IMG/VR virus record: IMGVR_UViG_2681813321_000027
Length of the DNA stretch: 51,515 bases
Source: a virus
Taxonomy: Duplodnaviria > Heunggongvirae > Uroviricota > Caudoviricetes
Reading direction: 5' to 3' (one strand)
In this document: one piece after another, positions 1 to 47,521 of the stretch
Layout of the letters: every line of letters starts with the position of its first letter
Numbering within the stretch: the first letter of the stretch is position 1
The notes under the pieces: model-generated
What the model was told of the DNA's origin: nothing
Seen by the model: only the letters and a program-made list of their open reading frames with translations
Databases searched by the model: none
Position numbers and translations under genes: made by a program

Positions 1-1005
1 TTAATCCCCCGTGGACACTGCGTGGACACTCACGCCACCTTTCAGCGGATTAAGGGCCACCGCATCCTGCAGGTAATCCGGTGCAAAATGTGCATATGCC
101 ATTGTTTGCTGAATGGTTGCGTGGCCAAGAATCTTCTGAAGCGCAATAATGTTTCCTCCGTTCATCACAAAATGGCTGGCGAACGTATGCCGCAGCACAT
201 GTGCAGCCTGGCCTTTTGGTAAATCGGGCTTAACTCTTTTCAGCGCCAAGCAGAATTCCCGGTACTTCACCTCAAACAAGCCGCCTGTTTCTCTGGTTTT
301 GATCGCCTCACAAACTGCCTGCGAAATTGGCACTGTTCTCTTTCGGCCATTTTTGGTTTCAAGAAACGTTACACGGTTATGAACTATCTGTTCACCACGA
401 AGCTTACAAGCTTCACTCCAGCGCGCCCCTGTGCTTAAACACAAAAGCGCAACACGCCAGTAGTCGCCATCCAGTGTATCGAGCAATAGCGCTACTTCCT
501 TCTGGGACAGGAAAGCCATTTCTCGCGGGGATACATAAAGAATGGAGATCCCCCTTACCGGATGTTCTGCATCCCAAAGGCCTATTCTTTTCAGAACAGT
601 AAACATGCCGGATAGTCGGTTCATGTACCTGTTAGCAGATGACGGTTTCAATCCAGCAGCTATCTTTTGAGAACGCCACGCGATAATTTTCAACTTATCA
701 AGATCCACAGCCTGCATATCAGCGCCAAGTTCATTGATTATGTTGCACAGTTGTTTTCGGTCTTCTTCCGCCTTACGCCTGTGTTGACCGTGATACATCC
801 ACCACAACTCAAGCAAATCATTTAGCGTTCGGCGATCACGGTAGCCCTGTATATATTCCCGCTTTTCAGCGTTCGCCATGATGTAGCGTTCAGTGGCCAC
901 CGCTACCGATTTTTTGTCAAATACCTTACGCACGCGCTTTCCCTTGCGTCCGTTCGGCCTGATGTCCAGCAAATAACGACCATCTTCGAGCTTCTTAATT
1001 GACAT
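1..1005 (-). CDS. int: tyrosine integrase (P2 Int family)
   Basis: 334 aa; collinear with P2 Int as recalled (IKKLxDGRY N-terminus, LRHTFA and GHxxIQQTMxYAHFAP catalytic C-terminus); ATG at 1005, TAA at 1-3; first gene in prophage order. Confidence 0.9.
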   Translation of the reverse strand: MSIKKLEDGRYLLDIRPNGRKGKRVRKVFDKKSVAVATERYIMANAEKREYIQGYRDRRTLNDLLELWWMYHGQHRRKAEEDRKQLCNIINELGADMQAVDLDKLKIIAWRSQKIAAGLKPSSANRYMNRLSGMFTVLKRIGLWDAEHPVRGISILYVSPREMAFLSQKEVALLLDTLDGDYWRVALLCLSTGARWSEACKLRGEQIVHNRVTFLETKNGRKRTVPISQAVCEAIKTRETGGLFEVKYREFCLALKRVKPDLPKGQAAHVLRHTFASHFVMNGGNIIALQKILGHATIQQTMAYAHFAPDYLQDAVALNPLKGGVSVHAVSTGD

Positions 1006-1101
1006 TGCGAAGCCCTCCAATGAACCGCCCTACAATTTCTCCAGCCTCTTTCCAGCAATAATCAGACCAGACAAAGAGCAGGTCTAACCAGTTTTCTGGA
1101 C

Positions 1102-5007: not shown

Positions 5008-7830
5008 ATGACGGCAGAGTACATCAGGGACTGGCAACAACCGCGCCACGCAGTGGGGCGTGAAGGAACGGGGATCCCCGCTCCTGAATCCGCGCTTTCC
5101 TCCTGGCTGGATGCCTACCGGGCAGAGAACGAGCGCCGCCAGGAAATGGCTGATGCGGCGTTCTCCGCCACGCCGCTGGGCAACCTGATTAATAAAAGCC
5201 TGGACGCACAGGAAAAACAGGACAAAACCATCACACTGGCAGGAGACGCCAGAAAACAGGCACGTGGCGCGGTGGATGAAGCCATGGCCTCGCTGCGCCT
5301 GCTGCCGTCCTATCTGCGCGATCCGCTTATTCGCCACCTCTCCTTCCTGCGCAAAAAACAGGAAGCCGATCGCCGGAAAGGCAAAAAGAGCTGGCAGGCT
5401 GAACGCTACGCGTGCGGAACCCTGCGCAAAATATTCGAACGTCTGGACCGCACCGACCACCGCTGGCTGACACCGGGTTATCGCTCCCTTGCCGGACGCG
5501 AACGCCTGGATGATTTGCTTTACCTGCCGCAGCTCAACAAACACCAGATACAGACGCTGGCCACCATGACGGCGGCGATGTTCAGCAGCACCTTCGAAAA
5601 ACTCTGCGATGGCTTTGGCGCGACTGATGGCGAGCTGACCATGGATGTAACGCTGAAGGCTTATCAGATGCTGGCCCGCATGGCGTTACACCTGCACGCC
5701 ATGCCTCCACATTATGACGCACTGACAACAGACAAAGACCGGAGGAACGAACCGGACACGGAGCTGCTGCCGGGCGCAATCCTTCGCTTGACCTGTGCGG
5801 AATGGTGGAAACGCAAACTATGGCTGTTGCGTTGTGAGTGGCGGGAAGAACAACTCCGCGCCGCCTGTCTGGTTTCCAGAAAAACATCCCCCTATCTGAG
5901 CCAGGACGCGTTAAGCGAGTTTCGCGCACAGCGCGAGAAAACACGCGATTTCCTGAAAAGTTTCATGCTGGAAAATGAAGACGGGTTCACGATTGATCTC
6001 GAGACGGTGTATTACGCGGGAGTAAGTAACCCGGTTCACCGTAAGGCAGAAATGATGGCCACCATGAAGGGACTGGAACTTCTGGCCGAAGCCCGTGGCG
6101 ACAGAGCGGTGTTTCTGACCGTCACCTGCCCGTCAAAATACCACGCAACAACGGAGAACGGTCATCCGAACCCCAAATGGAACGGGGCCACCATGCGCGA
6201 CTCCAGCGATTACCTGGTTAACACGTTTTTTGCGGCGGTCCGCAAAAAACTGAACCGCGACGGCCTGCGCTGGTATGGCATCCGCACGGTGGAGCCTCAC
6301 CATGACGGCACTGTGCACTGGCATATGATGGTCTTTGCACATCCGGACGAGATTGAAACCATCGTGTCCCACGTCTGCGATATTGCCATTCAGGAGGGCC
6401 GCCACGAGCTGGGCGATGACATAACTCCGCGTTTTAAGGCGGAGTATGTCGACGGCTCAAAAGGCACACCAACCAGCTACATCGCCACCTACATCGGAAA
6501 GAACCTGGACAGCCGCGCCGTGGATGGCATCGACCCGAAAACGGGCAAGCCACGCGTTGACCACGAAACCGGAAAATCAATGGCCGAGAGCGTGGAGCGC
6601 GCCATCGGCTGGGCGCGCCTTCACCGGGTCCGTCAGTTCCAGTTCTTTGGCATCCCCTCCCGTCAGGTGTGGCGTGAACTGCGCCGCCTTGCCAGCCAGA
6701 TGGCACGCAATCCGGAAGGCCCGCAACGGCTGAAAGATGATGCAATGGATGCGGTACTCGCTGCCGCCGATGCCGGGTGTTTTGCCACCTACATTGAAAA
6801 ACAGGGTGGCGTGCTTGTTCCACGCAAGGACTACCTGATTCGCACCGCCTACGACCTCGCAGATGAGCTGAACGATTACGGCGAACAGAGCGTACAGATT
6901 TACGGGATCTGGTCACCACTCATCGGGGAATCCTCCCGTGTGTGCACGCATCCGGATAACTGGAAGCTGGTAAGACGTAAACCAGAACCGGAAGACAACG
7001 CCCACGAAAATGGTTTTGACCTTCAGGGCGGCCCTGCCGCCCCTTGGACTCGTGGCAATAACTGTCCCCGTGTACAGGAAACGGACGACAACGGGACAGA
7101 ACAGCCGGAAGAACGGCCAGCACCGTGGCCGCAGCTCCCTGACGGCGTTGAAGTGAACGAATGGATGCGCTCACTGAAACGGCACGAACGCCGGGCGCTG
7201 ATGCGTTCGCTTCGTGACAAACAGGCAAAAAACAGCAGTGATGAAATGCAGAGCTGGACACAGAGCCGCAAACAGCAGCGGCCTTTGCCTGATAACCACG
7301 AATTACTCGCTAAAGAATGGCGGGAGTCTGCTGAATCTCTCGGCCTGCATATCGGTGAACAGCAGATGCAGCACCTGTTACGGGGCGGCAGCCTGTACGT
7401 TGACGGCAGCATCATTGCACCGCAGGGATTTGAAATTGTACGCAAACCGGATACCCGACCGGACAGCCGGATCACGCAGCTCTGGCAGCGCCTGAGCCGT
7501 AACCACGGCGTAAGCAGTACGGAGATCCGCCATAACCCGGTCGCCAGCTATCTGGAACAGCTGGGGGCATCAGACCCCGAAGCCGCCGCACGCCTGGCAT
7601 CCACACTTCAGCAGGACCAGAACACCATGAAAACACCCGTTACCGTGCTTTCTGACATGCTGCGCGCCATCCGCGACGCAGAGCACGCACAGAGAATCAG
7701 TGAAACCACTGAACGCGCCCGCCGCAAAGCAGACCTGCTGCGGGGTAGCCTGACCAGTGGAAACAAAAAACAGACAGAAAAGGGATTCACAAATCCCGTA
7801 AATGAGCAAAAAACGCGCCGCGATATATGA
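5008..7830 (+). CDS. A: rolling-circle replication initiator (P2 gpA family)
   Basis: 940 aa; HUH motif VHWHMMVF (about 6316-6336) and two-tyrosine motif YIATYIGK (about 6475-6501); long charged C-terminal region. Confidence 0.85.
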   Translation: MTAEYIRDWQQPRHAVGREGTGIPAPESALSSWLDAYRAENERRQEMADAAFSATPLGNLINKSLDAQEKQDKTITLAGDARKQARGAVDEAMASLRLLPSYLRDPLIRHLSFLRKKQEADRRKGKKSWQAERYACGTLRKIFERLDRTDHRWLTPGYRSLAGRERLDDLLYLPQLNKHQIQTLATMTAAMFSSTFEKLCDGFGATDGELTMDVTLKAYQMLARMALHLHAMPPHYDALTTDKDRRNEPDTELLPGAILRLTCAEWWKRKLWLLRCEWREEQLRAACLVSRKTSPYLSQDALSEFRAQREKTRDFLKSFMLENEDGFTIDLETVYYAGVSNPVHRKAEMMATMKGLELLAEARGDRAVFLTVTCPSKYHATTENGHPNPKWNGATMRDSSDYLVNTFFAAVRKKLNRDGLRWYGIRTVEPHHDGTVHWHMMVFAHPDEIETIVSHVCDIAIQEGRHELGDDITPRFKAEYVDGSKGTPTSYIATYIGKNLDSRAVDGIDPKTGKPRVDHETGKSMAESVERAIGWARLHRVRQFQFFGIPSRQVWRELRRLASQMARNPEGPQRLKDDAMDAVLAAADAGCFATYIEKQGGVLVPRKDYLIRTAYDLADELNDYGEQSVQIYGIWSPLIGESSRVCTHPDNWKLVRRKPEPEDNAHENGFDLQGGPAAPWTRGNNCPRVQETDDNGTEQPEERPAPWPQLPDGVEVNEWMRSLKRHERRALMRSLRDKQAKNSSDEMQSWTQSRKQQRPLPDNHELLAKEWRESAESLGLHIGEQQMQHLLRGGSLYVDGSIIAPQGFEIVRKPDTRPDSRITQLWQRLSRNHGVSSTEIRHNPVASYLEQLGASDPEAAARLASTLQQDQNTMKTPVTVLSDMLRAIRDAEHAQRISETTERARRKADLLRGSLTSGNKKQTEKGFTNPVNEQKTRRDI

Positions 7831-7875
7831 AGCGCGCATAAAACAGGCAAAAACGGGATTTCAGAATCCCGTAAA
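7782..7875. promoter_or_regulatory. paired palindromic repeats upstream of parM (parC-like centromere/operator candidate)
   Basis: gggattcacaaatcccgtaaa (7782-7802, inside the last codons of A) and gggatttcagaatcccgtaaa (7855-7875); each an inverted repeat gggatt-N4-aatccc; copies in repeat units 2 and 3, absent from unit 4. Confidence 0.4.
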
Positions 7876-7906
7876 CGATTAATTAATCAACATAAGGAAA
7901 AGCGAC

Positions 7907-8866
7907 ATGAAAATTTGTATCGATGACGGCTCCACCAACATCAAGCTGGCATGGACTGAGAAGGGCGAACGCCGCAACGCCATCAGCCCAAACAGCTTCA
8001 AGTCGGAATGGTCTGCGCCGTTCGGTGGCACGCAGCCCGCGAACTACATGCTTGATGGCGTGCGCTATGGTTTTGATCCGGTCAGCGATCGCTTTGTCCA
8101 GACGACCGACACGCAATACCAGTACAGCGATGTGAATGTCATTGCCATTCATCACGCGCTGGTCAAATCAGGCATCACACCACAGGAAGTGGATGTGGTT
8201 GTCACCCTGCCACTGAGCGAATATTTCGACACAAACGCACAGCCGGACATGGCCAACATCAATCGCAAAAAAGCAAACGTCATGCGCCCGGTGGCGTACC
8301 AGAACGGAAAAGCATTCACTATCCGTAACGTACGGGTTATGCCTGAATCCATTCCGGCTGGTTTTAAAGCACTGGCTGACATGAGTCCGTTTGAATCCCT
8401 GCTGATTGTGGATTTAGGCGGAACCACGCTGGATGTGGCAAAGGTTCAGGGACAACTGGCAGGTATCAGCCAGGTGTTTTGCGATCCACACGTAGGCGTT
8501 TCCCTGATGGCCGATGCCGTACTGTCGGTGATGGCCACTAACGGTATGCGTACCAGTCACCACATCGCCAATACCATTATCGAACATCGCCATGATGAAG
8601 CCTGGCTGCGCCAGCACATCCACAATGACGCGCATTACGCCAGCCTGATGGCGGTTATTCGTGAAAAGGAAGAAACACTGAAACAACGCGTGTTCCGCGC
8701 GCTGGCGGGTTTTTCGGGTTACGGGCGGGTGATGGTTGTCGGTGGCGGGGCGGAGATTGTGGCACCCGCTATCCGCGAAGCCTGCGGAGTTAATGCGACT
8801 TTCATCGCGGACGGGGTGCCACAGTTTGCTCTGGTTAATGGGCTGTACGCAATGGACAAGGAGTAA
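7907..8866 (+). CDS. parM: ParM/StbA-like actin-fold ATPase
   Basis: 319 aa; MKICIDDGSTNIKLAW, DLGGTTLDV and VVGGGAEI motifs; collinear with plasmid R1 ParM as recalled. Confidence 0.85.
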   Translation: MKICIDDGSTNIKLAWTEKGERRNAISPNSFKSEWSAPFGGTQPANYMLDGVRYGFDPVSDRFVQTTDTQYQYSDVNVIAIHHALVKSGITPQEVDVVVTLPLSEYFDTNAQPDMANINRKKANVMRPVAYQNGKAFTIRNVRVMPESIPAGFKALADMSPFESLLIVDLGGTTLDVAKVQGQLAGISQVFCDPHVGVSLMADAVLSVMATNGMRTSHHIANTIIEHRHDEAWLRQHIHNDAHYASLMAVIREKEETLKQRVFRALAGFSGYGRVMVVGGGAEIVAPAIREACGVNATFIADGVPQFALVNGLYAMDKE

Positions 8867-8870
8867 ACCA

Positions 8871-9182
8871 ATGACGACACCAACCAGACGGATAAGTTTC
8901 TATCTGAAGCCCGCCGCCGTCAAGAACGAAGGCGAAGCATGCGCCTGGCTGGACAGCCTTACACCAGAAGCCCGCAAAAGTGGTCAACGCGTGGCTTTTC
9001 TGGCCGGGCTGGCACTACTGAAAATGAATCCGGCAGAGGCTTACCGACTGGCTGCATGGGCTGATGATGAGGCGTTATCAGTGACACAAACCAGGACAGA
9101 ACGCCCCGCGTCACAGCCAGTACCAACCGCACAGATAACCAGTCAGATGGCCGGAAATATCCGGGCGTTATTTCCCGAATAA
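8871..9182 (+). CDS. parR: ParR-like adaptor (putative)
   Basis: 103 aa from ATG 8871 with aaggag RBS; AFLAGLALL and IRALFPE resemble R1 ParR; directly downstream of parM. Confidence 0.55.
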   Translation: MTTPTRRISFYLKPAAVKNEGEACAWLDSLTPEARKSGQRVAFLAGLALLKMNPAEAYRLAAWADDEALSVTQTRTERPASQPVPTAQITSQMAGNIRALFPE

Positions 9183-9188
9183 CACAAC

Positions 9189-9210
9189 ATCAGGGCGCAT
9201 CCGCCCTGAT
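9189..9210 (+). other. perfect hairpin between parR and zbd gene
   Basis: atcagggcg-catc-cgccctgat, 9-bp stem, 7 nt after parR stop; no strong T-run. Confidence 0.3.
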
Positions 9211-9245: not shown

Positions 9246-9578
9246 ATGCAATACATTGACAGAGAAAAAGCGCAGCGACTGATTGAGCGGATGGAAGCGC
9301 TGGCGAAAGAAGAAAATGTCAACATCCAAAAAATAGCTGAATGTGGCCAGATAGTTCTTCGTCGTGAAAAAGACCTCAAACAACTGATGTCTGGCGAAAC
9401 CAGCAAAACATGGACTTCAGGCGAGAAGACGGTTTATTGCAGTTTCTGCAATAAATCCCAGTACGAAGTCACAAAGGTGATTGCCGGACCGTCTGTTTAC
9501 ATCTGCAATGAGTGTGTGGATTTGTGCAATGAAATTATCAGGAAAGAAGTGACAGACAAAAAGGAAAAAAACGCATGA
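9246..9578 (+). CDS. standalone ClpX zinc-binding-domain (C4 zinc finger) homolog
   Basis: 110 aa; C-terminal [38 protein letters not shown] closely matches the ClpX N-terminal ZBD (CxxC...CxxC); no AAA+ module. Confidence 0.75.
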
Positions 9579-10014: not shown

Positions 10015-10467
10015 ATGCACAATAGTGCACAAATTTGCACAATTTTTTTGAACGACTGTTTACCCTTCCAGCCCGTATAGCGGCTGGATCCGTCAAGGAT
10101 CCGTGCGTGCACAAAAAAACGCGCTTTTTCTGCGCGCAGGTGACGGGGGAACAGCCCGCGTTTCAGGGGGTAAATAGCATTCCCTGAACGATGTCGCAGA
10201 GACACAACAGAATGGCTGTATTTCTCACTCTGAGCGTGAAAAATACGTGAGGGATTCTGATTTGATGGGGTGAAAGGTAAGGCCGTCAAAATCGCACTGA
10301 GGCGGCGAAGAACATGCAGTCAACGCGGTGGGATTGCGTAAGAGTCTGACCGCCGATGATGGCAATAAGCAGAAAAGCGTCGTGAAATTATCTGATTGAT
10401 ACAGGAGCTGGAGAGCCGGGGCATAAATTTTTTATGCCCCGGCGAAGCAGCAGACAAGCGAAGCGCG
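10015..10467. other. cos / packaging region (candidate)
   Basis: 453-bp non-coding region in the P2 cos position next to the Q stop; three tgcacaa direct repeats (10015-10045), 13-bp-stem hairpin 10415-10443, G-rich tract gaggcggcgaagaacatgc at about 10298-10316. Confidence 0.4.
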
Positions 10468-11514
10468 TCAGGATGTGGGCTGGGTATCTAACAGTGCGTA
10501 AGGGTTAAAGCGGATCACCTCTTCGCCAAGCCAGTCATTGATGTGCTTCATGGCCTCCATGACGGGCATCAGCTCGTTAATTGCGTAAACCCGCGCGGCC
10601 TTCTCCACATCACCAAACGCACTTTTTTCACCCGGCATCGCCCCCATAAGTTGCGGCGGAACGCGGTGCGCAGCCAGCACATCATCACGGGATGCCGCCT
10701 TAACATTCATGAACTCATCCTTTGCGGTGATCTGCTGGAACGGCAAAATTTGCACCCCCTCTTTGCCCCCGTTGGGCGCATGAATGAGCACGTTTTTAAA
10801 CGCACCGCCACCACGTGCACCCTGTAGCGTTTCTTTCAGGGAGTCCATGCTTTCGCGGTTTACCTGCGCTGCACCGATGTAGATGATGCACCCGGCGTGG
10901 GATCCGTTGTCGTAATACAGTTTTCTGAACATGTCCGCCGAATGAGACAGGCTGGCCGAGAGTAATGCGCCGAGATATTCCGGCATGCCGTAGATTTCCT
11001 GGTTAATGTCAGGATTCATCAGGTGGCACACTTTGCCAGGGCGAAACTGGAACGCATCCTTGCCATCCTGCACATACCACCATGATTCAAGATCGCTACC
11101 GCGTCGCATGTATTTCGCCAGGGCGTGCCGTAATTTAAGCGGTTCGCCGAGCATATTGCTTCGAAGCTCAAGGAATGCGTTACCGAACACAAACCAGTCC
11201 AGCGCCAGCGCCGAGAAATCCTGCCGGGAAAGCAGCGGGTGCGGGATGTAGCAACCGAGTAATACATTGCGCTTAAAGTAAAGCGCAGACTGATGCCAGG
11301 ACGTTTGCCGGGCAGCTCTTGCCAGACCGTACCAGTCCACCGGGGTTTCATACCACCGCCCGTTATCAGCACAGTACATATTGTCCAGCAGGTCATGCCC
11401 GGTCAGGCGATAAGGACCATCAAATGTGAATGCACTGAGCGACGATTCTTTCCTGAGCGCATCAGCGAGATCAATGCGTGAACTCATGCGCACTTTTTTA
11501 TTTTTTCTGCTCAT
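10468..11514 (-). CDS. Q: portal protein (P2 gpQ family)
   Basis: 348 aa; size and position match P2 Q; ATGA overlap with P. Confidence 0.85.
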   Translation of the reverse strand: MSRKNKKVRMSSRIDLADALRKESSLSAFTFDGPYRLTGHDLLDNMYCADNGRWYETPVDWYGLARAARQTSWHQSALYFKRNVLLGCYIPHPLLSRQDFSALALDWFVFGNAFLELRSNMLGEPLKLRHALAKYMRRGSDLESWWYVQDGKDAFQFRPGKVCHLMNPDINQEIYGMPEYLGALLSASLSHSADMFRKLYYDNGSHAGCIIYIGAAQVNRESMDSLKETLQGARGGGAFKNVLIHAPNGGKEGVQILPFQQITAKDEFMNVKAASRDDVLAAHRVPPQLMGAMPGEKSAFGDVEKAARVYAINELMPVMEAMKHINDWLGEEVIRFNPYALLDTQPTS

Positions 11515-13229
11515 CAGAACTCCATAACCGTGAAACGCTCGTTTTCTCCTTCGCCGCCAATCGGTTCGTTAATGACAGCAAGCATGGTTGCCCACGCAAG
11601 GTCGCCGTGGCTGATCCCCCTCGCGCGGTCCGTTTCGTAAGTGATAAAGCCGCCCGGTGTTTTCACCTTACGCACGGCGTTAAAGGCCGCGACCAGCTCG
11701 CGTTCGGCGCGATCGTATTCCCACCGCCCGGCACGCATTATTTGCAGCATTTTCAGTACCAGCGACCGTTTTGATGACAGCGTGAAGGTGTACGGAATAG
11801 CAGCAGGGAAAAACCGTTTCACTATCTGATAAACAGCCTCCCCGTTCCCGCCCGTCACATCAATGCCGATGTGTTCCACGTTGTAGCGATACGTGAACTC
11901 TTCAATGACTCTGGCCTGTTCTTCAAACTCCAGCCCCTGAACGCGTCTCGTCTCCACCGTTCGAAAACGGCCACCAGGAACAGCCGGAGGAACCACCACG
12001 GACACAGCGCCGCTGTCGCCGTTGCCACTGCTGCCGTTTGCGTCATACCCAATCCATACCGGACGATTCCCCATCGGGCGGGGAGCAAAAGGTTTCCAGT
12101 CTTTCCAGTCGTCGTATCCGTCAACACCGCAGCCAATCAGGATATTCAGGTTAAATGCCGATTCCCCTTCGCGGACAAACTCACACATATAGAGATTGAG
12201 GAACTCGTCTTCGGTGTTTTCATCACGAATTTCGTCGATATCGGTGTGTTTCCAGCCGTGATTAACCACATCTTCCAGCGTGACAATTTGCCGCCACGTC
12301 CGGTCAGGGCAGATAAGCCCGTTATGCAGCGTTTTCCAGTCCACAGAAAAACGCTGGCGTTTATGCGAGGCCTTTTTCTCGTTCCAGCGGTCGCCGTTCC
12401 AGTAGGCGTATGCCTCGTGCGTTTCGGTGGATGGCGTGGAGAAGTAGGTGCGTCGCAGCCCGCTGAGGGTTGCCATAGCGCCAGCCACCTTGCGCAGTTC
12501 AGCAAAGCGACTGACCCAGAAAAATTCATCAAAATAAAAATTGCCCGTATAGGACTGTGCCGTCGCAGCAGAAGTACCGAGAAAATGCAGTTCTGCGCCG
12601 TTGGAGAGGATGATTTTATCGCCCCCTTTCAGCTCCACATCAACTTCAGCCGCGGCCTTCTGAATAATGCTTTTAAACTGGAACGCCTGACGACGCGACG
12701 CAGACAAAAAAATCTGGTTACGCTGGTAAGGTTGTGCCACATCGTCACGCAGCGCCATCAGCAGTGCTTCCTGTGCAAAATACCAGGTCGCCCCAATCTG
12801 TCGGGATTTCAGGATCATCCTGTTACGTATCCCGGCTTCACTGCAAAGGGTCAGGGAGTCAAACCAGCCCCGCTGATGCCACTCCAGCCTGCTGATGATT
12901 TTTTCCCGCAGTGCGGCAATCTGTTCCGGCGTGAAATGATTTTTGAGTTTTTTCGCCCGGCCTTTCTTTCCTGCGGCCGTCACATCCGGCTGGCCATCAT
13001 GCAGCTTTTTAAGCTGCCGGGTCAGCAGGTCTATTTCCTTAAAGTCACCACCTGTTTTATTCTGTTTTTCAGTAAGCTGGATGAGACGCGCATCGATGGA
13101 CTGCGTGACACGCTGCACGGGTGGCGTTTCATCCCACTGGTCGCGTTTTTTCCACGCATAAATCGTGTTCGGGTTTATTCCCATCAGACGTGATATTTCT
13201 GCGGGCGGATAACCCTGCCAGTAAAGTTG
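11514..13229 (-). pseudogene. P: terminase ATPase subunit gpP, 5'-truncated at junction J1
   Basis: matches full P copies from about residue 13 onward; upstream part of the 605-aa track ORF is antisense A sequence. Confidence 0.7.
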
Positions 13230-13231: not shown

Positions 13232-14821
13232 CGCAAAAAACTGAACCGCGACGGCCTGCGCTGGTATGGCATCCGCACGGTGGAGCCTCACCATGACGGC
13301 ACTGTGCACTGGCATATGATGGTCTTTGCACATCCGGACGAGATTGAAACCATCGTGTCCCACGTCTGCGATATTGCCATTCAGGAGGGCCGCCACGAGC
13401 TGGGCGATGACATAACTCCGCGTTTTAAGGCGGAGTATGTCGACGGCTCAAAAGGCACACCAACCAGCTACATCGCCACCTACATCGGAAAGAACCTGGA
13501 CAGCCGCGCCGTGGATGGCATCGACCCGAAAACGGGCAAGCCACGCGTTGACCACGAAACCGGAAAATCAATGGCCGAGAGCGTGGAGCGCGCCATCGGC
13601 TGGGCGCGCCTTCACCGGGTCCGTCAGTTCCAGTTCTTTGGCATCCCCTCCCGTCAGGTGTGGCGTGAACTGCGCCGCCTTGCCAGCCAGATGGCACGCA
13701 ATCCGGAAGGCCCGCAACGGCTGAAAGATGATGCAATGGATGCGGTACTCGCTGCCGCCGATGCCGGGTGTTTTGCCACCTACATTGAAAAACAGGGTGG
13801 CGTGCTTGTTCCACGCAAGGACTACCTGATTCGCACCGCCTACGACCTCGCAGATGAGCTGAACGATTACGGCGAACAGAGCGTACAGATTTACGGGATC
13901 TGGTCACCACTCATCGGGGAATCCTCCCGTGTGTGCACGCATCCGGATAACTGGAAGCTGGTAAGACGTAAACCAGAACCGGAAGACAACGCCCACGAAA
14001 ATGGTTTTGACCTTCAGGGCGGCCCTGCCGCCCCTTGGACTCGTGGCAATAACTGTCCCCGTGTACAGGAAACGGACGACAACGGGACAGAACAGCCGGA
14101 AGAACGGCCAGCACCGTGGCCGCAGCTCCCTGACGGCGTTGAAGTGAACGAATGGATGCGCTCACTGAAACGGCACGAACGCCGGGCGCTGATGCGTTCG
14201 CTTCGTGACAAACAGGCAAAAAACAGCAGTGATGAAATGCAGAGCTGGACACAGAGCCGCAAACAGCAGCGGCCTTTGCCTGATAACCACGAATTACTCG
14301 CTAAAGAATGGCGGGAGTCTGCTGAATCTCTCGGCCTGCATATCGGTGAACAGCAGATGCAGCACCTGTTACGGGGCGGCAGCCTGTACGTTGACGGCAG
14401 CATCATTGCACCGCAGGGATTTGAAATTGTACGCAAACCGGATACCCGACCGGACAGCCGGATCACGCAGCTCTGGCAGCGCCTGAGCCGTAACCACGGC
14501 GTAAGCAGTACGGAGATCCGCCATAACCCGGTCGCCAGCTATCTGGAACAGCTGGGGGCATCAGACCCCGAAGCCGCCGCACGCCTGGCATCCACACTTC
14601 AGCAGGACCAGAACACCATGAAAACACCCGTTACCGTGCTTTCTGACATGCTGCGCGCCATCCGCGACGCAGAGCACGCACAGAGAATCAGTGAAACCAC
14701 TGAACGCGCCCGCCGCAAAGCAGACCTGCTGCGGGGTAGCCTGACCAGTGGAAACAAAAAACAGACAGAAAAGGGATTCACAAATCCCGTAAATGAGCAA
14801 AAAACGCGCCGCGATATATGA
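13231..14821 (+). pseudogene. A: 3' fragment of A (about residues 412-940), no start
   Basis: identical to 6240-7830. Confidence 0.8.
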
Positions 14822-14897
14822 AGCGCGCATAAAACAGGCAAAAACGGGATTTCAGAATCCCGTAAACGATTAATTAATCAACATAAGGAAAAGCGAC

Positions 14898-15857
14898 ATG
14901 AAAATTTGTATCGATGACGGCTCCACCAACATCAAGCTGGCATGGACTGAGAAGGGCGAACGCCGCAACGCCATCAGCCCAAACAGCTTCAAGTCGGAAT
15001 GGTCTGCGCCGTTCGGTGGCACGCAGCCCGCGAACTACATGCTTGATGGCGTGCGCTATGGTTTTGATCCGGTCAGCGATCGCTTTGTCCAGACGACCGA
15101 CACGCAATACCAGTACAGCGATGTGAATGTCATTGCCATTCATCACGCGCTGGTCAAATCAGGCATCACACCACAGGAAGTGGATGTGGTTGTCACCCTG
15201 CCACTGAGCGAATATTTCGACACAAACGCACAGCCGGACATGGCCAACATCAATCGCAAAAAAGCAAACGTCATGCGCCCGGTGGCGTACCAGAACGGAA
15301 AAGCATTCACTATCCGTAACGTACGGGTTATGCCTGAATCCATTCCGGCTGGTTTTAAAGCACTGGCTGACATGAGTCCGTTTGAATCCCTGCTGATTGT
15401 GGATTTAGGCGGAACCACGCTGGATGTGGCAAAGGTTCAGGGACAACTGGCAGGTATCAGCCAGGTGTTTTGCGATCCACACGTAGGCGTTTCCCTGATG
15501 GCCGATGCCGTACTGTCGGTGATGGCCACTAACGGTATGCGTACCAGTCACCACATCGCCAATACCATTATCGAACATCGCCATGATGAAGCCTGGCTGC
15601 GCCAGCACATCCACAATGACGCGCATTACGCCAGCCTGATGGCGGTTATTCGTGAAAAGGAAGAAACACTGAAACAACGCGTGTTCCGCGCGCTGGCGGG
15701 TTTTTCGGGTTACGGGCGGGTGATGGTTGTCGGTGGCGGGGCGGAGATTGTGGCACCCGCTATCCGCGAAGCCTGCGGAGTTAATGCGACTTTCATCGCG
15801 GACGGGGTGCCACAGTTTGCTCTGGTTAATGGGCTGTACGCAATGGACAAGGAGTAA
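14898..15857 (+). CDS. parM: ParM-like ATPase, copy 2
   Basis: identical protein, offset +6991. Confidence 0.8.
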   Translation: MKICIDDGSTNIKLAWTEKGERRNAISPNSFKSEWSAPFGGTQPANYMLDGVRYGFDPVSDRFVQTTDTQYQYSDVNVIAIHHALVKSGITPQEVDVVVTLPLSEYFDTNAQPDMANINRKKANVMRPVAYQNGKAFTIRNVRVMPESIPAGFKALADMSPFESLLIVDLGGTTLDVAKVQGQLAGISQVFCDPHVGVSLMADAVLSVMATNGMRTSHHIANTIIEHRHDEAWLRQHIHNDAHYASLMAVIREKEETLKQRVFRALAGFSGYGRVMVVGGGAEIVAPAIREACGVNATFIADGVPQFALVNGLYAMDKE

Positions 15858-22368: not shown

Positions 22369-22559
22369 ATGATTACTCCTGCACAGCAACACTGGCAGAA
22401 CGTGATGGCACAGCGCGCAGGCCGGGCGAATGAAGGCGTGGACCACGCCGCGCGTACCGCGCATGAAGAGGTGCTGTATCGTCTGCGTCTGGCACAGGCC
22501 CGGCTTAAGGGCGTACAGGCCAGAAGCGCGAAAGCCGCCATCAAAAAAGAGTTATTGCC
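22369..22559 (+). pseudogene. M: terminase small subunit gpM, first 63 codons only (fused to A at J2)
   Basis: identical to start of full M at 38770; track ORF 22369-23337 is an M::A chimera. Confidence 0.8.
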
Positions 22560-22561
22560 AG
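22559..22561. other. junction J2: M / orphan A / internal A (= 7054)
   Basis: ...gagttattgcc + a + ggcaataactgtcccc... Confidence 0.85.
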
Positions 22562-23337
22562 GCAATAACTGTCCCCGTGTACAGGAAACGGACGACAACG
22601 GGACAGAACAGCCGGAAGAACGGCCAGCACCGTGGCCGCAGCTCCCTGACGGCGTTGAAGTGAACGAATGGATGCGCTCACTGAAACGGCACGAACGCCG
22701 GGCGCTGATGCGTTCGCTTCGTGACAAACAGGCAAAAAACAGCAGTGATGAAATGCAGAGCTGGACACAGAGCCGCAAACAGCAGCGGCCTTTGCCTGAT
22801 AACCACGAATTACTCGCTAAAGAATGGCGGGAGTCTGCTGAATCTCTCGGCCTGCATATCGGTGAACAGCAGATGCAGCACCTGTTACGGGGCGGCAGCC
22901 TGTACGTTGACGGCAGCATCATTGCACCGCAGGGATTTGAAATTGTACGCAAACCGGATACCCGACCGGACAGCCGGATCACGCAGCTCTGGCAGCGCCT
23001 GAGCCGTAACCACGGCGTAAGCAGTACGGAGATCCGCCATAACCCGGTCGCCAGCTATCTGGAACAGCTGGGGGCATCAGACCCCGAAGCCGCCGCACGC
23101 CTGGCATCCACACTTCAGCAGGACCAGAACACCATGAAAACACCCGTTACCGTGCTTTCTGACATGCTGCGCGCCATCCGCGACGCAGAGCACGCACAGA
23201 GAATCAGTGAAACCACTGAACGCGCCCGCCGCAAAGCAGACCTGCTGCGGGGTAGCCTGACCAGTGGAAACAAAAAACAGACAGAAAAGGGATTCACAAA
23301 TCCCGTAAATGAGCAAAAAACGCGCCGCGATATATGA
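22561..23337 (+). pseudogene. A: 3' fragment of A (last about 258 codons)
   Basis: identical to 7054-7830. Confidence 0.8.
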
Positions 23338-23413
23338 AGCGCGCATAAAACAGGCAAAAACGGGATTTCAGAATCCCGTAAACGATTAATTAATCAACAT
23401 AAGGAAAAGCGAC

Positions 23414-24373
23414 ATGAAAATTTGTATCGATGACGGCTCCACCAACATCAAGCTGGCATGGACTGAGAAGGGCGAACGCCGCAACGCCATCAGCCCAAAC
23501 AGCTTCAAGTCGGAATGGTCTGCGCCGTTCGGTGGCACGCAGCCCGCGAACTACATGCTTGATGGCGTGCGCTATGGTTTTGATCCGGTCAGCGATCGCT
23601 TTGTCCAGACGACCGACACGCAATACCAGTACAGCGATGTGAATGTCATTGCCATTCATCACGCGCTGGTCAAATCAGGCATCACACCACAGGAAGTGGA
23701 TGTGGTTGTCACCCTGCCACTGAGCGAATATTTCGACACAAACGCACAGCCGGACATGGCCAACATCAATCGCAAAAAAGCAAACGTCATGCGCCCGGTG
23801 GCGTACCAGAACGGAAAAGCATTCACTATCCGTAACGTACGGGTTATGCCTGAATCCATTCCGGCTGGTTTTAAAGCACTGGCTGACATGAGTCCGTTTG
23901 AATCCCTGCTGATTGTGGATTTAGGCGGAACCACGCTGGATGTGGCAAAGGTTCAGGGACAACTGGCAGGTATCAGCCAGGTGTTTTGCGATCCACACGT
24001 AGGCGTTTCCCTGATGGCCGATGCCGTACTGTCGGTGATGGCCACTAACGGTATGCGTACCAGTCACCACATCGCCAATACCATTATCGAACATCGCCAT
24101 GATGAAGCCTGGCTGCGCCAGCACATCCACAATGACGCGCATTACGCCAGCCTGATGGCGGTTATTCGTGAAAAGGAAGAAACACTGAAACAACGCGTGT
24201 TCCGCGCGCTGGCGGGTTTTTCGGGTTACGGGCGGGTGATGGTTGTCGGTGGCGGGGCGGAGATTGTGGCACCCGCTATCCGCGAAGCCTGCGGAGTTAA
24301 TGCGACTTTCATCGCGGACGGGGTGCCACAGTTTGCTCTGGTTAATGGGCTGTACGCAATGGACAAGGAGTAA
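23414..24373 (+). CDS. parM: ParM-like ATPase, copy 3
   Basis: offset +15507. Confidence 0.8.
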   Translation: MKICIDDGSTNIKLAWTEKGERRNAISPNSFKSEWSAPFGGTQPANYMLDGVRYGFDPVSDRFVQTTDTQYQYSDVNVIAIHHALVKSGITPQEVDVVVTLPLSEYFDTNAQPDMANINRKKANVMRPVAYQNGKAFTIRNVRVMPESIPAGFKALADMSPFESLLIVDLGGTTLDVAKVQGQLAGISQVFCDPHVGVSLMADAVLSVMATNGMRTSHHIANTIIEHRHDEAWLRQHIHNDAHYASLMAVIREKEETLKQRVFRALAGFSGYGRVMVVGGGAEIVAPAIREACGVNATFIADGVPQFALVNGLYAMDKE

Positions 24374-31267: not shown

Positions 31268-31269
31268 AG
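31267..31269. other. junction J3: M / orphan A / parM upstream (= 7877)
   Basis: ...ggtactgac + a + gattaattaatcaacataagg...; breakpoint lies just 3' of palindromic repeat 2. Confidence 0.85.
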
Positions 31270-31298
31270 ATTAATTAATCAACATAAGGAAAAGCGAC

Positions 31299-32258
31299 AT
31301 GAAAATTTGTATCGATGACGGCTCCACCAACATCAAGCTGGCATGGACTGAGAAGGGCGAACGCCGCAACGCCATCAGCCCAAACAGCTTCAAGTCGGAA
31401 TGGTCTGCGCCGTTCGGTGGCACGCAGCCCGCGAACTACATGCTTGATGGCGTGCGCTATGGTTTTGATCCGGTCAGCGATCGCTTTGTCCAGACGACCG
31501 ACACGCAATACCAGTACAGCGATGTGAATGTCATTGCCATTCATCACGCGCTGGTCAAATCAGGCATCACACCACAGGAAGTGGATGTGGTTGTCACCCT
31601 GCCACTGAGCGAATATTTCGACACAAACGCACAGCCGGACATGGCCAACATCAATCGCAAAAAAGCAAACGTCATGCGCCCGGTGGCGTACCAGAACGGA
31701 AAAGCATTCACTATCCGTAACGTACGGGTTATGCCTGAATCCATTCCGGCTGGTTTTAAAGCACTGGCTGACATGAGTCCGTTTGAATCCCTGCTGATTG
31801 TGGATTTAGGCGGAACCACGCTGGATGTGGCAAAGGTTCAGGGACAACTGGCAGGTATCAGCCAGGTGTTTTGCGATCCACACGTAGGCGTTTCCCTGAT
31901 GGCCGATGCCGTACTGTCGGTGATGGCCACTAACGGTATGCGTACCAGTCACCACATCGCCAATACCATTATCGAACATCGCCATGATGAAGCCTGGCTG
32001 CGCCAGCACATCCACAATGACGCGCATTACGCCAGCCTGATGGCGGTTATTCGTGAAAAGGAAGAAACACTGAAACAACGCGTGTTCCGCGCGCTGGCGG
32101 GTTTTTCGGGTTACGGGCGGGTGATGGTTGTCGGTGGCGGGGCGGAGATTGTGGCACCCGCTATCCGCGAAGCCTGCGGAGTTAATGCGACTTTCATCGC
32201 GGACGGGGTGCCACAGTTTGCTCTGGTTAATGGGCTGTACGCAATGGACAAGGAGTAA
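31299..32258 (+). CDS. parM: ParM-like ATPase, copy 4 (no upstream repeats)
   Basis: offset +23392. Confidence 0.8.
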   Translation: MKICIDDGSTNIKLAWTEKGERRNAISPNSFKSEWSAPFGGTQPANYMLDGVRYGFDPVSDRFVQTTDTQYQYSDVNVIAIHHALVKSGITPQEVDVVVTLPLSEYFDTNAQPDMANINRKKANVMRPVAYQNGKAFTIRNVRVMPESIPAGFKALADMSPFESLLIVDLGGTTLDVAKVQGQLAGISQVFCDPHVGVSLMADAVLSVMATNGMRTSHHIANTIIEHRHDEAWLRQHIHNDAHYASLMAVIREKEETLKQRVFRALAGFSGYGRVMVVGGGAEIVAPAIREACGVNATFIADGVPQFALVNGLYAMDKE

Positions 32259-42090: not shown

Positions 42091-42718
42091 GGCATTCACC
42101 CGCGTGGATGAAACCTTTGAGGCCATCCGCGACAGCCTGAATCAGCAGGCCATCAATAACATCGCCAGAAAGCTGGCACAGAATTTACGCCGCGCCCAGC
42201 AGGCGCGTATCCGGTCACAGAAAGCGCCGGACGGGACCGCGTGGACACCACGCAGACGCCGCGTAACCCGGATACAGGAACGCATTCGCTTTATCTGGAA
42301 TAACGAAGCACGCACGCTGAAAAACTGGCATCACGACACGGGGAAATACGGGCGAACCATCACCGGGTGGGATGAGGATAAAAACAACATCCGCACGTTT
42401 TACCGGGATGACATCGACCGCTTTCTGGAAATACGCACCCGGCGCATCAACCAGGACAGCACAAAGCGCGTCCCCATGTTCGTAAAACTGCGCACCGCCC
42501 GCTACCTGAAAGCCCGTGCGGATACTTCCGGTGTGACGGTGGGTTACAGCGGCGTGGCTGCACGTATTGCACGCGTTCATCAGTTCGGTGAGCGCGATCA
42601 GGTTGCGCCGGGCATTTTCACCGATTACCCGGTACGTGAGCTGTTGGGCATCAGTCAGGCAGATGAACGCCTGATTTATAACACGGTGCTGGGCCGGATT
42701 GCGGAGGCTGTACGGTGA
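42083..42718 (+). CDS. S: tail completion protein (P2 gpS family, putative)
   Basis: ATG 42083 overlaps R stop; assignment by synteny. Confidence 0.6.
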   Translation: MDKAFTRVDETFEAIRDSLNQQAINNIARKLAQNLRRAQQARIRSQKAPDGTAWTPRRRRVTRIQERIRFIWNNEARTLKNWHHDTGKYGRTITGWDEDKNNIRTFYRDDIDRFLEIRTRRINQDSTKRVPMFVKLRTARYLKARADTSGVTVGYSGVAARIARVHQFGERDQVAPGIFTDYPVRELLGISQADERLIYNTVLGRIAEAVR

Positions 42719-43296
42719 GCGCAGAACTCATGCGACTGCTGAGCAATATCATCCGCACCGGGATCATCTCTGAAGTTGATGAGAAGTCCTGGCGCGTGCG
42801 CGTTCGCAGCGGCGAACTGGAGACAGGCTGGTTGCGCTGGAACACCACGCGCGCGGGAGCCTTCAATGTGTGGCTGCCGCCATCACCAGGCGAACAGGTG
42901 GTAATTGCCTGCATTGGCGGCAACCCGGAAACCGCCATGATAATTGGCAGCCTGTGGAGTGATGCCAATCCGGCCCCCGGCAAAAGCCTGAAAGAAATCG
43001 TGATCAGCGCGCCGGACGGCGCGGTGTTCCGCTACGACGCGGACGCAGGCGCACTGAGCGCCAGCGGCATGAAAACGGCCACTTTACAGGCATCCGTCAG
43101 CGTGACACTGGACACGCCCGTCGTGGAATGCACAAACCTTCTGAGAACGGCGACGCTTGACGTCACAAAAGGGGGAAAGATGAGCGGCAATATCACGCAC
43201 AGCGGCGGCGATTTCACCTCAAACGGCATTACCGTGCATACGCATAAACACGGTGGCGTGAAAGGCGGCAGCGATTCGACAGGAGGCCCGCATTGA
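42715..43296 (+). CDS. V: baseplate spike/assembly protein (P2 gpV family)
   Basis: 193 aa, GTG start overlapping S stop; position before W. Confidence 0.75.
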   Translation: MSAELMRLLSNIIRTGIISEVDEKSWRVRVRSGELETGWLRWNTTRAGAFNVWLPPSPGEQVVIACIGGNPETAMIIGSLWSDANPAPGKSLKEIVISAPDGAVFRYDADAGALSASGMKTATLQASVSVTLDTPVVECTNLLRTATLDVTKGGKMSGNITHSGGDFTSNGITVHTHKHGGVKGGSDSTGGPH

Positions 43297-43643
43297 CAAC
43301 CCGCTACACAGGAATGAATCCGGACGGGACGGGAAACCTGAACGATATGGAGCACCTGAAACAGTCAGTCAGGGATATCCTGACCACCCCGCTGGCAAGC
43401 CGGGTTATGCGACGGGAATATGGCAGCCTTGTGCCTGATTTGATTGACGAACCCATGAATAACACCACGCGTCTGCAATGCATGAGTGCTGCCGTGATTG
43501 CGCTGACACGATGGGAACCCCGCATTGCCCTGGATGCCATCGACGTTGTCTGGAAAGCGGGAGGCCGCGCCGGGGTGACGCTGTCGGGCACTGTCATGCA
43601 GACCATGCAGAATGTTGAGTTAACCATCACGCTGAGGGAGTAA
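43293..43643 (+). CDS. W: baseplate protein (P2 gpW family)
   Basis: 116 aa, TTG start with aggagg RBS. Confidence 0.75.
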   Translation: MTTRYTGMNPDGTGNLNDMEHLKQSVRDILTTPLASRVMRREYGSLVPDLIDEPMNNTTRLQCMSAAVIALTRWEPRIALDAIDVVWKAGGRAGVTLSGTVMQTMQNVELTITLRE

Positions 43644-43646
43644 ATC

Positions 43647-44543
43647 ATGCCCGCCGTTGACCTTTCCCAATTACCGGAACCCGCCATCATCGCGGAGCCT
43701 GACTTTGAGGCAATTCTGGCTGACACAAAGGCCATGATGATTGCGGCTTATCCCGCCGAACAGCGTGAAGCCGTCTCCGCCGCGCTGGAGCTGGAATCGG
43801 AACCCCTGAACGTTATCGCCCAGACAACAGCGTTTCGTGAAATGCTGTTACGCCAGCGGGTCAATGAGGGGGCACGCGCCTGCATGTTAAGCCACAGCGC
43901 CGGGACAGACCTGGACAACCTCGCGGGCAATATGAACACAAAGCGCCTGACCATCACTCCGGCAACGGATACCACCGACGCAGTGATGGAAAGTGACACC
44001 TCGCTGAGACTGCGGGCGCAGCGGGCGTACGATGGCCTGAGTGTTGCTGGCCCGTCAGGTGCATACGAGTATTTTGCCCGCAGCGCCAGCGGTCTGGTGC
44101 GTGATGCGCGGGCTATCAGTCCGTCTCCGGCAAATGTGACGGTTTCCATCCTGTCCACTGAAGGCGACGGCACAGCAACGGAGGCGTTGCTTAATACCGT
44201 TCGCGCCGTTCTGAATGCAGAGGATACCCGCCCGGTGGCCGACCGCCTGACCGTACAGAGTGCCAGAATCGTGACATGGCGGCTGAATGCAAAACTGTAC
44301 TTTTACCCCGGCCCGGAATCCGAACCTATTCTGGCCGCGGCGGAATCGTCATTCAGGAAGTGGCTGGCTGAACAGGGGCTTATCGGTCAGGACGTGGCGT
44401 TGTCCGCCATTGCTGCCGCACTGCATGTGCACGGTGTGCAACGCGTGGAGATAATCGAACCCACACAGAATATGGCCATCAGCGACATACAGGCGGCGCG
44501 CTGTGAGTCATTCACCATCAGCGAAGGTGGACGCAATGAGTAA
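43647..44543 (+). CDS. J: baseplate protein (P2 gpJ family)
   Basis: 298 aa; size and order match P2 J. Confidence 0.8.
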   Translation: MPAVDLSQLPEPAIIAEPDFEAILADTKAMMIAAYPAEQREAVSAALELESEPLNVIAQTTAFREMLLRQRVNEGARACMLSHSAGTDLDNLAGNMNTKRLTITPATDTTDAVMESDTSLRLRAQRAYDGLSVAGPSGAYEYFARSASGLVRDARAISPSPANVTVSILSTEGDGTATEALLNTVRAVLNAEDTRPVADRLTVQSARIVTWRLNAKLYFYPGPESEPILAAAESSFRKWLAEQGLIGQDVALSAIAAALHVHGVQRVEIIEPTQNMAISDIQAARCESFTISEGGRNE

Positions 44544-45144
44544 TTCGTTGTTACCACCATCAGCCAGCAATTTCATGCGTTGTGCCGAAGCCGTCGGAAC
44601 ACGCATTACAGACATTCCGGTGGACCTCAACACGCTGTGGTCGCCGGACACCTGCCCGGTGCATCTGCTGCCTTATCTCGCCTGGGCGTTTTCCGTTGAC
44701 CGCTGGGATCGCAACTGGCCGGAAGAGACAAAGCGACAGGTGATTCGTGATGCATGGCTGATACACCGACACAAAGGGACCATCAGCGCACTGCGAAGAG
44801 CCGTGGAGCCTCTCGGCTACCTGATTGAAGTAAAGGAGTGGTGGCAACTCAACGAGGAGCCAGGAACATTTCGCATTGTTGTCGGAGTACTTGATCAGGG
44901 CATCACCGATGAAATGTATCAGGAACTTGAGCGCCTTATTGCGGATGCAAAACCAGTAAGTCGCCATCTGACGGGGCTGGCGATCAGCCTGAGTGTGAAC
45001 GGAAAGATTTTCGTTGGTACGGGATGCTATCACGGCGATGCCCTGACGGTTTATCCCTACACCCCGGAGTCCATTATTGTCGAAGGGGATTATTTCCCTG
45101 CCCCGGCCATTCATTTAATTGATAATCTGAGAGTAAACGCATGA
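44536..45144 (+). CDS. I: baseplate/tail protein (P2 gpI family)
   Basis: ATG 44536 overlaps J stop; about 202 aa. Confidence 0.7.
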   Translation: MSNSLLPPSASNFMRCAEAVGTRITDIPVDLNTLWSPDTCPVHLLPYLAWAFSVDRWDRNWPEETKRQVIRDAWLIHRHKGTISALRRAVEPLGYLIEVKEWWQLNEEPGTFRIVVGVLDQGITDEMYQELERLIADAKPVSRHLTGLAISLSVNGKIFVGTGCYHGDALTVYPYTPESIIVEGDYFPAPAIHLIDNLRVNA

Positions 45145-46658: not shown

Positions 46659-46660
46659 AG
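46658..46660. other. junction J4: H / orphan A / internal S (= 42435)
   Basis: ...gatgattat + a + gcacccggcgcatcaacc... Confidence 0.85.
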
Positions 46661-46943
46661 CACCCGGCGCATCAACCAGGACAGCACAAAGCGCGTCCCC
46701 ATGTTCGTAAAACTGCGCACCGCCCGCTACCTGAAAGCCCGTGCGGATACTTCCGGTGTGACGGTGGGTTACAGCGGCGTGGCTGCACGTATTGCACGCG
46801 TTCATCAGTTCGGTGAGCGCGATCAGGTTGCGCCGGGCATTTTCACCGATTACCCGGTACGTGAGCTGTTGGGCATCAGTCAGGCAGATGAACGCCTGAT
46901 TTATAACACGGTGCTGGGCCGGATTGCGGAGGCTGTACGGTGA
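46660..46943 (+). pseudogene. S: 3' fragment of S
   Basis: identical to 42435-42718. Confidence 0.75.
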
Positions 46944-47521
46944 GCGCAGAACTCATGCGACTGCTGAGCAATATCATCCGCACCGGGATCATCTCTGAAG
47001 TTGATGAGAAGTCCTGGCGCGTGCGCGTTCGCAGCGGCGAACTGGAGACAGGCTGGTTGCGCTGGAACACCACGCGCGCGGGAGCCTTCAATGTGTGGCT
47101 GCCGCCATCACCAGGCGAACAGGTGGTAATTGCCTGCATTGGCGGCAACCCGGAAACCGCCATGATAATTGGCAGCCTGTGGAGTGATGCCAATCCGGCC
47201 CCCGGCAAAAGCCTGAAAGAAATCGTGATCAGCGCGCCGGACGGCGCGGTGTTCCGCTACGACGCGGACGCAGGCGCACTGAGCGCCAGCGGCATGAAAA
47301 CGGCCACTTTACAGGCATCCGTCAGCGTGACACTGGACACGCCCGTCGTGGAATGCACAAACCTTCTGAGAACGGCGACGCTTGACGTCACAAAAGGGGG
47401 AAAGATGAGCGGCAATATCACGCACAGCGGCGGCGATTTCACCTCAAACGGCATTACCGTGCATACGCATAAACACGGTGGCGTGAAAGGCGGCAGCGAT
47501 TCGACAGGAGGCCCGCATTGA
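46940..47521 (+). CDS. V: gpV, copy 2
   Basis: identical. Confidence 0.75.
   Translation: MSAELMRLLSNIIRTGIISEVDEKSWRVRVRSGELETGWLRWNTTRAGAFNVWLPPSPGEQVVIACIGGNPETAMIIGSLWSDANPAPGKSLKEIVISAPDGAVFRYDADAGALSASGMKTATLQASVSVTLDTPVVECTNLLRTATLDVTKGGKMSGNITHSGGDFTSNGITVHTHKHGGVKGGSDSTGGPH

Follow-up and report, generated by a model that had tools for sequence, protein, structure and literature searches.

Known partition sites and the locus under study

In the type II ParMRC system of plasmids R1/NR1 the parC site is located directly upstream of parM-parR, and serves both as centromere and as operator (Dam & Gerdes 1994, cited in PMC9426499). The ParR protein of plasmid pB171 is reported to bind a pair of 10-bp direct repeats located upstream of parM, and all ParRs characterised by 2022 were described as binding direct repeats (PMC9426499). 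The parC of a chromosomal system of Clostridium botulinum, Cb-cParCMR, was reported in 2025 to contain three palindromic repeats, and ParR binding was demonstrated by electrophoretic mobility shift assay (PMC12270681). Actin-like partition modules have also been described on integrating elements, such as AlpAC/alpS of the Corynebacterium prophage CGP3 (PMC4446434) and SrpMRC/srpC of the SXT/R391 integrative and conjugative elements (PMC4489591). Here we describe two short inverted repeats (boxes) upstream of a parM-parR gene pair in a viral DNA of 51,515 nucleotides (IMG/VR record IMGVR_UViG_2681813321_000027; the whole stretch is called the window), which is a P88-like E. coli prophage (genus Xuanwuvirus, P2-like Peduoviridae). 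On the strength of sequence comparisons we consider it likely that the two boxes are the ParR sites of a compact, inverted-repeat parC/operator belonging to a phage-borne type II ParMRC cassette. A role of the boxes as a centromere for segregation in the living cell is suggested with less confidence. The features of the locus are the following:

5008-7830, plus strand: gpA, replication endonuclease, 940 aa (PF05840, E = 2e-128); its 3' end overlaps box 1
7782-7797, no strand assigned: box 1 (E1), 16-bp core GGGATTCACAAATCCC, two inverted AAWCCC half-sites
7798-7854, no strand assigned: spacer between the boxes, 57 bp, holding the gpA stop; its length is kept between genera, its sequence is not
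7855-7870, no strand assigned: box 2 (E2), 16-bp core GGGATTTCAGAATCCC, ending 36 nt before the parM ATG
7879-7898, plus strand: AT-rich block TTAATTAATCAA with a weak -10-like candidate (TTAATT), from the alignment of five lineages (see below)
7907-8866, plus strand: parM, actin-like segregation ATPase, 319 aa (PF06406, E = 1.1e-81; PF21523, E = 3.4e-68)
8871-9182, plus strand: parR, ParR/StbB homologue (stbB-like), 103 aa (PF10784, E = 4.1e-24)

Two inverted-repeat boxes upstream of parM

An earlier note on this DNA had reported two 21-bp repeats 73 bp apart, one of them inside the 3' end of gene A. Both were located exactly: repeat 1 (GGGATTCACAAATCCCGTAAA) occupies positions 7782-7802 and repeat 2 (GGGATTTCAGAATCCCGTAAA) positions 7855-7875, with a start-to-start distance of 73 bp and with the gpA stop codon (TGA, 7828-7830) between them. 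Box 1 is indeed within the last 16 codons of gpA, where it codes for the residues G-F-T-N-P, and box 2 is placed in the 76-bp gap between gpA and parM (ATG at 7907). Relative to the parM ATG, boxes 1 and 2 start at -125 and -52, respectively. A search of the window with the pattern GGGATT-N4-AATCCCGTAAA, allowing up to two mismatches, yielded six matches, compared with 0.00 expected from 100 shuffles; the six matches are a single box pair, carried by three near-identical copies of a large duplicated segment.

The conserved unit is the 16-bp core GGG-N10-CCC, usually in the form (C)GGGATT-N4-AATCCC(G). The 21-mers extend past this core, and their GTAAA tail is not kept in other genera. Box 2 and its flanks make up the 20-bp palindrome ACGGGATT-N4-AATCCCGT (7853-7872). 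The base corresponding to position 7781 is C in most of 82 close relatives, in which both boxes are 20-bp palindromes with the 8-bp arms ACGGGATT/AATCCCGT. Each box is composed of two inverted AAWCCC half-sites whose centres are 10 bp apart. No further half-sites were found in the spacer of the window, and inspection by eye of the different lineages for extra spacer half-sites, matches to IHF sites and A-tract phasing revealed nothing consistent.

Conservation of the box pair

The approximately 1.9-kb stretch around the boxes is 95-99% identical to phages P88, PhiR44_2, Citrobacter phiSM and others. More distant parMR loci were gathered through ParR and ParM homologues, and all of these belonged to P2-like prophages, in the interval from gpA to the portal gene. 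Each of five diverged prophage lineages has a pair of GGG-N10-CCC boxes with a spacing of 72-73 bp:

Window: GGGATTCACAAATCCC / GGGATTTCAGAATCCC, spacing 73 bp
P88: GGGACTCACGAATCCC / GGGATTTCAGAATCCC, spacing 73 bp
Hafnia1: GGGATTCATGAATCCC / GGGATTTGAAAATCCC, spacing 73 bp
Plesiomonas: GGGACAACAAAAACCC / GGGACAACACTAACCC, spacing 72 bp
Hafnia2: GGGATTGAGGAAACCC / GGGTTCATTAAATCCC, spacing 73 bp

The start of box 2 was 51-59 nt from the parM ATG in all five, and the spacers and flanks were unrelated between E. coli, Plesiomonas and Hafnia2. Because GGG-N10-CCC words are scarce (three to five per 8-13 kb locus) and the pair recurs with the same spacing and in the same position in independent lineages, it cannot be attributed to chance. 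The motif search in related prophages that the earlier note had proposed found the box pair kept in these five lineages.

The boxes accompany parMR, not gpA. In Hafnia2 (locus L195) a 167-aa open reading frame (ORF) is inserted between gpA and parM, and the boxes are at the end of that ORF, adjoining parM, with no box at the gpA end. The gene and the frame that read through box 1 differ from phage to phage, showing that the constraint acts on the DNA itself. By these comparisons the boxes belong to the parMR cassette and not to the replication origin.

At the population level, the exact box pair was found in 93 IMG/VR contigs, in all of which (93/93) the parM ATG follows box 2 by 36 nt. Among 116 indel-free P88-like haplotypes the minor-allele fraction was 0.019 in the arms, 0.034 in the spacer and 0.108 in the 4-nt centres, the arm value being biased in 6 of the 24 columns since the selection of haplotypes demanded GGG at the start of each box. 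Scanning IMG/VR with a general box-pair pattern returned P88-like variants only, and a ParM search of genome contigs gave only three close relatives.

ParR, ParM and the half-site match to R1-type iterons

The identities of the two proteins, which the earlier note had assumed, were borne out by the domain matches: the first gene of the pair encodes a true ParM (PF06406 and PF21523) and the second a homologue of ParR/StbB (PF10784). ParM is 46.5% identical to the IncFII R1-type ParM. A search of the Protein Data Bank with the single ParR sequence returned only noise and a family profile was needed; a profile built from 13 phage and plasmid ParRs matched the structure of pB171 ParR (2JD3, 'StbB protein') with an E value of 5.9e-20. 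In the alignment the N-terminal ribbon-helix-helix strand reads RRISFYLKP in the phage protein and RTIAFKLNP in the IncFII R1-type protein, and the C-terminal NIRALFPE aligns with the ParM-binding tail of plasmid ParRs, with the motif N-x-x-x-L-F-P kept. All of the 84 ParR homologues collected by word search share the N-terminal MTTPTRRISFYLKP. Among P88-like ParR alleles the N-terminal 18 residues are identical, and overall identity drops to 52-57% through the ParM-facing C-terminal half. This pattern suggests that ParR has diversified at the interface with ParM rather than in DNA specificity.

The DNA sites show a corresponding resemblance. Upstream of parM the IncFII R1-type plasmid has 9-10 cores (AAACCCA/AACACCA) with a period of 10-11 bp, which form two clusters surrounding a TTGACA promoter. 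The phage half-sites (AAATCCCG, GAATCCCG, AAAACCCG, GAAACCCA and others) can be written as AAWCCC(A/G), which is the same core as the R1-type AAACCCA.

Comparison with known parC sites

The organization expected of a type II system was found at the locus: repeats upstream, ParM downstream of them, ParR after parM, and repeats co-inherited with parMR. The phage site shares with R1 parC its place directly upstream of parM-parR, a homologous ParR (PF10784) and the repeat core. However, the R1-type arrangement, in which a promoter is flanked by two groups of five direct 11-bp iterons, was not found at the boxes. R1 has about ten direct iterons around a clear promoter, whereas the phage site has four half-sites in two inverted pairs and lacks a clear promoter; one of its boxes lies within the preceding gene, and its host element is an integrating phage. 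The dissimilarity to the multi-iteron R1 parC pointed out in the earlier note is therefore real: two boxes, each an inverted pair, stand against about ten cores with 11-bp periodicity. The parC1 of pB171 par1 is also a small centromere, and it is the ParR of this system whose structure was matched by the family profile; in pB171, however, the repeats are reported as direct and adjacent, and they are plasmid-borne, whereas the phage boxes are two palindromes seven helical turns apart. Cb-cParCMR resembles the phage locus in being a chromosomal ParMR system with a palindromic parC, but it differs in having three palindromes, a Firmicute host, an unrelated ParR sequence and no stated phage context. 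With pB171 (PMC9426499) and C. botulinum (PMC12270681) as precedents, a two-repeat or palindromic parC is not unprecedented. The adaptors of AlpAC and SrpMRC are not recognizable ParR homologues and their elements and hosts are different; these systems provide a functional analogy only.

Other ParR classes have repeats of their own in the same place (Serratia, Enterobacter, Cronobacter and Klebsiella loci). A parMR locus on a Klebsiella plasmid (L097, NZ_AP022022.1) likewise has a two-palindrome layout, with two copies of GCTCAAATTGAG upstream of parM, but its sequence is different, its 216-aa ParR is duplicated, and the system is uncharacterised. The Cronobacter plasmid carries many GTTCTCT iterons upstream. 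The Serratia (L193, 3380-3500) and Enterobacter (L194, 3380-3500) loci represent a second class of parMR in P2-like prophages, with the ParR N-terminus NRKISFYLKPAHS. The upstream region of this class contains a long inverted repeat, GGGAAC..ATAGAAAAAT / ATTTTTCT..TTTCGTTCCC, and a third half-site 32 bp beyond it. No description of the P88-type parC was found in the literature; in the phiSM paper the partition protein was merely listed as a 'fitness' gene (PMC6456863).

A model for the two-box site

Each half-site would be bound by one ribbon-helix-helix ParR dimer, and a box, as an inverted pair of R1-like iteron cores, would accommodate a dimer of dimers on successive major grooves. The 73-bp spacing corresponds to about 7.0 helical turns at 10.5 bp per turn, therefore both boxes, and the two ParR tetramers on them, would be on the same face of the DNA. 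The tetramers might then bridge or bend the 57-bp spacer or fill it in, yielding a small segrosome, in which the C-terminal tails of ParR would capture the ends of ParM filaments. With 36 nt from the end of box 2 to the start codon of parM, ParR bound there would also be expected to repress any local promoter or to block read-through from gpA, that is, to act in autoregulation. By analogy with CGP3 AlpAC and SXT SrpMRC, the system would act on the excised, circular, replicating phage DNA and not on the integrated prophage.

Several observations weigh against the proposal that the boxes form a ParR-bound parC. Compared with what the ring-shaped or helical segrosomes described for R1 and pSK41 would need, two boxes with four half-sites are a small number, and the element is nearly always integrated in the chromosome, in which it is not obvious what a functioning centromere would be good for. 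A half-site is disrupted in some natural variants (GGGACT, AATCCT). The RRISFYLKP strand is invariant in all two-box lineages, and when box variants were compared with ParR alleles over 185 loci, no tracking was seen, although with an invariant strand this covariation test is uninformative. Finally, scanning positions 7500-8000 for sigma-70 promoters detected none above threshold near the boxes.

The last result bears on the operator role, which for this reason must be regarded as conjecture. Hand-picked -35/-10 combinations gave only weak candidates. The position of the -10-like block is conserved between lineages (TATATT in Hafnia2, TTTATT in Plesiomonas), and it is followed by a Shine-Dalgarno sequence (AAGGA, 7894-7898) ahead of parM. 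If the AT-rich block were a promoter, its -35 would fall inside box 2. The scan revealed no plus-strand terminator between gpA and parM, thus transcripts of the early replication operon probably extend into parMR, and such read-through is at least as likely as transcription from an own promoter. In the earlier note the repeats had been interpreted as a parC in the expected place, bound by ParR and bracketing the promoter region of parM. The first part of this interpretation gained support from the position upstream of parM, the co-inheritance with parMR and the conserved spacing; the parM promoter could not be confirmed.

Alternative explanations

The boxes could be operators only, used by ParR or by another regulator to control parMR/gpA, in a cassette that is no longer a centromere-driven segregation machine. 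We think this unlikely, although it is favoured by the position of box 2 so close (36 nt) to the parM ATG, by the chromosomal integration of the element in nearly all genomes, by the small number of half-sites (four), and by the frameshifts found in parR of some genomes such as UMNF18. On the other hand, both proteins, ParM and ParR, are intact and have been conserved from one genus to another, ParR keeps its ParM-binding tail motif, and simple repression needs no second box far upstream at a fixed distance of 72-73 bp. A 34.5-kb circular P88-like genome record also exists. Moreover, an operator role overlaps with the parC interpretation, since R1 parC is centromere and operator at the same time.

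It is much less probable that the boxes function through structure, as intrinsic terminators on the minus strand or as plus-strand mRNA stem-loops that stabilise the gpA-parM transcript or direct its processing. The terminator scan did list both boxes as terminator-like on the minus strand, with a hairpin and a T-run (7872-7853 and 7797-7782), the hairpins of the window fold at -7.0 and -10.7 kcal/mol, and it is the loop positions that vary between variants, not the arms. However, no minus-strand gene points into the region or ends in it, and three stronger minus-strand terminators separate the late genes from parR. The arm sequence is the same in the two boxes, and compensatory changes were not observed. 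Stems of only 3-4 pairs (-3.2 to -4.9 kcal/mol) are left in Plesiomonas and Hafnia2, yet GGG-N10-CCC and the spacing persist. A terminator or RNA hairpin as the main function was rejected because the stems were not conserved over the five lineages folded and no Rfam family matched. Recognition by a sequence-specific protein fits the boxes better than structure.

The location of box 1 inside the gpA coding sequence raises the question of the phage replication origin, because P2-type origins lie in the 3' part of gene A. In P2 the ori nick is annotated 427 bp before the gene A stop. Its homologue in the window was found by alignment:

7017-7065, plus strand: sequence homologous to the ori nick region of P2 (in P2: GCGCCTCG|GAGTCCTGTCAATAACTGT), predicted nick at about 7046/7047

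This is approximately 735 bp upstream of box 1, and on this ground a P2-type origin at the boxes was rejected. In Hafnia2 another gene parts the boxes from gpA, and the 5.1 kb of P2 sequence that were read contain no box of this kind. Taken together, it is very improbable that the boxes are a part of the origin or binding sites of gpA. A P88-type gpA without parMR, which would have served as a control for box 1 staying with gpA, was not present in the phage record collection searched: the C-terminal 215 aa of gpA occurred in only 14 phage records, all of which also carried parMR. The gpA of the window is longer (940 aa) than that of P2 (761 aa).

Binding of the boxes by a different protein, such as the ClpX-zinc-finger protein, a phage immunity/Cox-type regulator or a host factor, deserves the least credence of all, for although a ClpX C4 zinc-finger ORF (9246-9578) follows parR, the genes downstream of parR differ in every box-bearing lineage and ParR is the only DNA-binding protein co-inherited with the boxes.

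Distribution

The 1.5-kb boxes-parM-parR segment (window 7700-9200) is carried by 1308 of the 5426 complete E. coli genomes searched (~24%), including O157:H7 strains, at up to three places per genome; 1454 of its places were chromosomal and 2 were on plasmids. Seven PLSDB entries matched this ParR type. They were P88-like prophages integrated into large plasmids, fragments of phages, or the genome of a circular phage (34,461 bp, P88-like, deposited as plasmid NZ_CP148288.1); no bona fide plasmid using this ParR/parC type was found among these matches.

Neighbouring genes and tandem copies

The window begins with the integrase gene:

1-1020, minus strand: integrase

It is followed by early genes, gpA, parM, parR, the ClpX zinc-finger ORF, and then by the portal and terminase genes on the minus strand. 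The ClpX C4 zinc-finger ORF 3' of parR (9246-9578, 110 aa; PF06689, E = 7e-18) also occurs in P88 and UMNF18, whereas the remaining box-bearing lineages lack it. Terminator-like hairpins on the minus strand are present between the late portal/terminase operon and parMR (10137-10119, 10008-9986 and 9211-9188), an arrangement consistent with insulation of convergent transcription units.

The duplication mentioned above consists of four nested, partial tandem copies of the prophage, which are 99.7-99.9% identical, with left ends corresponding to 6240, 7054 and 7877. A separate 4.2-kb duplication affects tail genes. Together these duplications occupy 6240-39152 and 42431-50883 of the window. The further copies of the boxes and of parM are as follows:

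14773-14788 and 14846-14861, no strand assigned: box pair copy 2, upstream of parM copy 2 (14898-15857)
23289-23304 and 23362-23377, no strand assigned: box pair copy 3, upstream of parM copy 3 (23414-24373)
31268-32258, plus strand: junction J3 and parM copy 4 (31299-32258), with the 30-nt leader kept and both boxes gone

As the earlier note had stated, the parM copy of repeat unit 4 is without both repeats. Homology of this unit begins at 31269, equivalent to 7877, that is, two bases past the end of repeat 2, and base 7876 is replaced by the junction A. The copy junctions are at about 13233, 22560, 31268 and 46657, and at each of them a single additional A separates the native sequences. Differences between the copies are confined to tight patches (10351-10486, 10801-11098 and 12453-13086) and are mostly transitions in third codon positions. 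At junction J2 (22550-22572) the gpM gene is joined to the equivalent of 7054, 7-8 nt 3' of the predicted gpA nick, and the joint is a perfect palindrome, AGTTATTGCC-A-GGCAATAACT. J2 was found in none of the 5426 complete E. coli genomes. It could hint at aberrant joining by gpA (an HUH nuclease) or at template switching at the ori. The tandem copies may have arisen by genuine amplification or through chimeric assembly, or the sequence may have been constructed.

Implications

What is new here is the two-box, inverted-repeat layout; the kind of element, a type II parC, is well known and is expected from knowledge of type II systems, thus the surprise is modest. If ParR binds the boxes, this parC would be one of the smallest within the R1/pB171 ParR family, built of inverted pairs and not of direct iterons, and a cis site would be defined for a ParMRC cassette that so far has been annotated at the protein level only. 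The fixed seven-turn spacing leads to a testable prediction on the fewest ParR dimers that can nucleate a segrosome. With a known site it can also be asked why an integrating P2-like phage keeps a plasmid partition machine, whether to position genomes during lytic replication, to support a carrier state or to be incompatible with rivals. As a tentative and rather doubtful extension, a two-box centromere located partly inside the initiator gene, about 735 bp from the rolling-circle origin, might let the phage use a plasmid-type actin motor to position or segregate its circular replicating genomes after infection or induction, or else to keep a transient plasmid-like carrier state, or to exclude related phages by centromere incompatibility. 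If this were true, a working segrosome could be nucleated by no more than four half-sites with seven helical turns between them, and the ParMRC system commonest in E. coli would serve as a phage organelle and not as a plasmid stability device.

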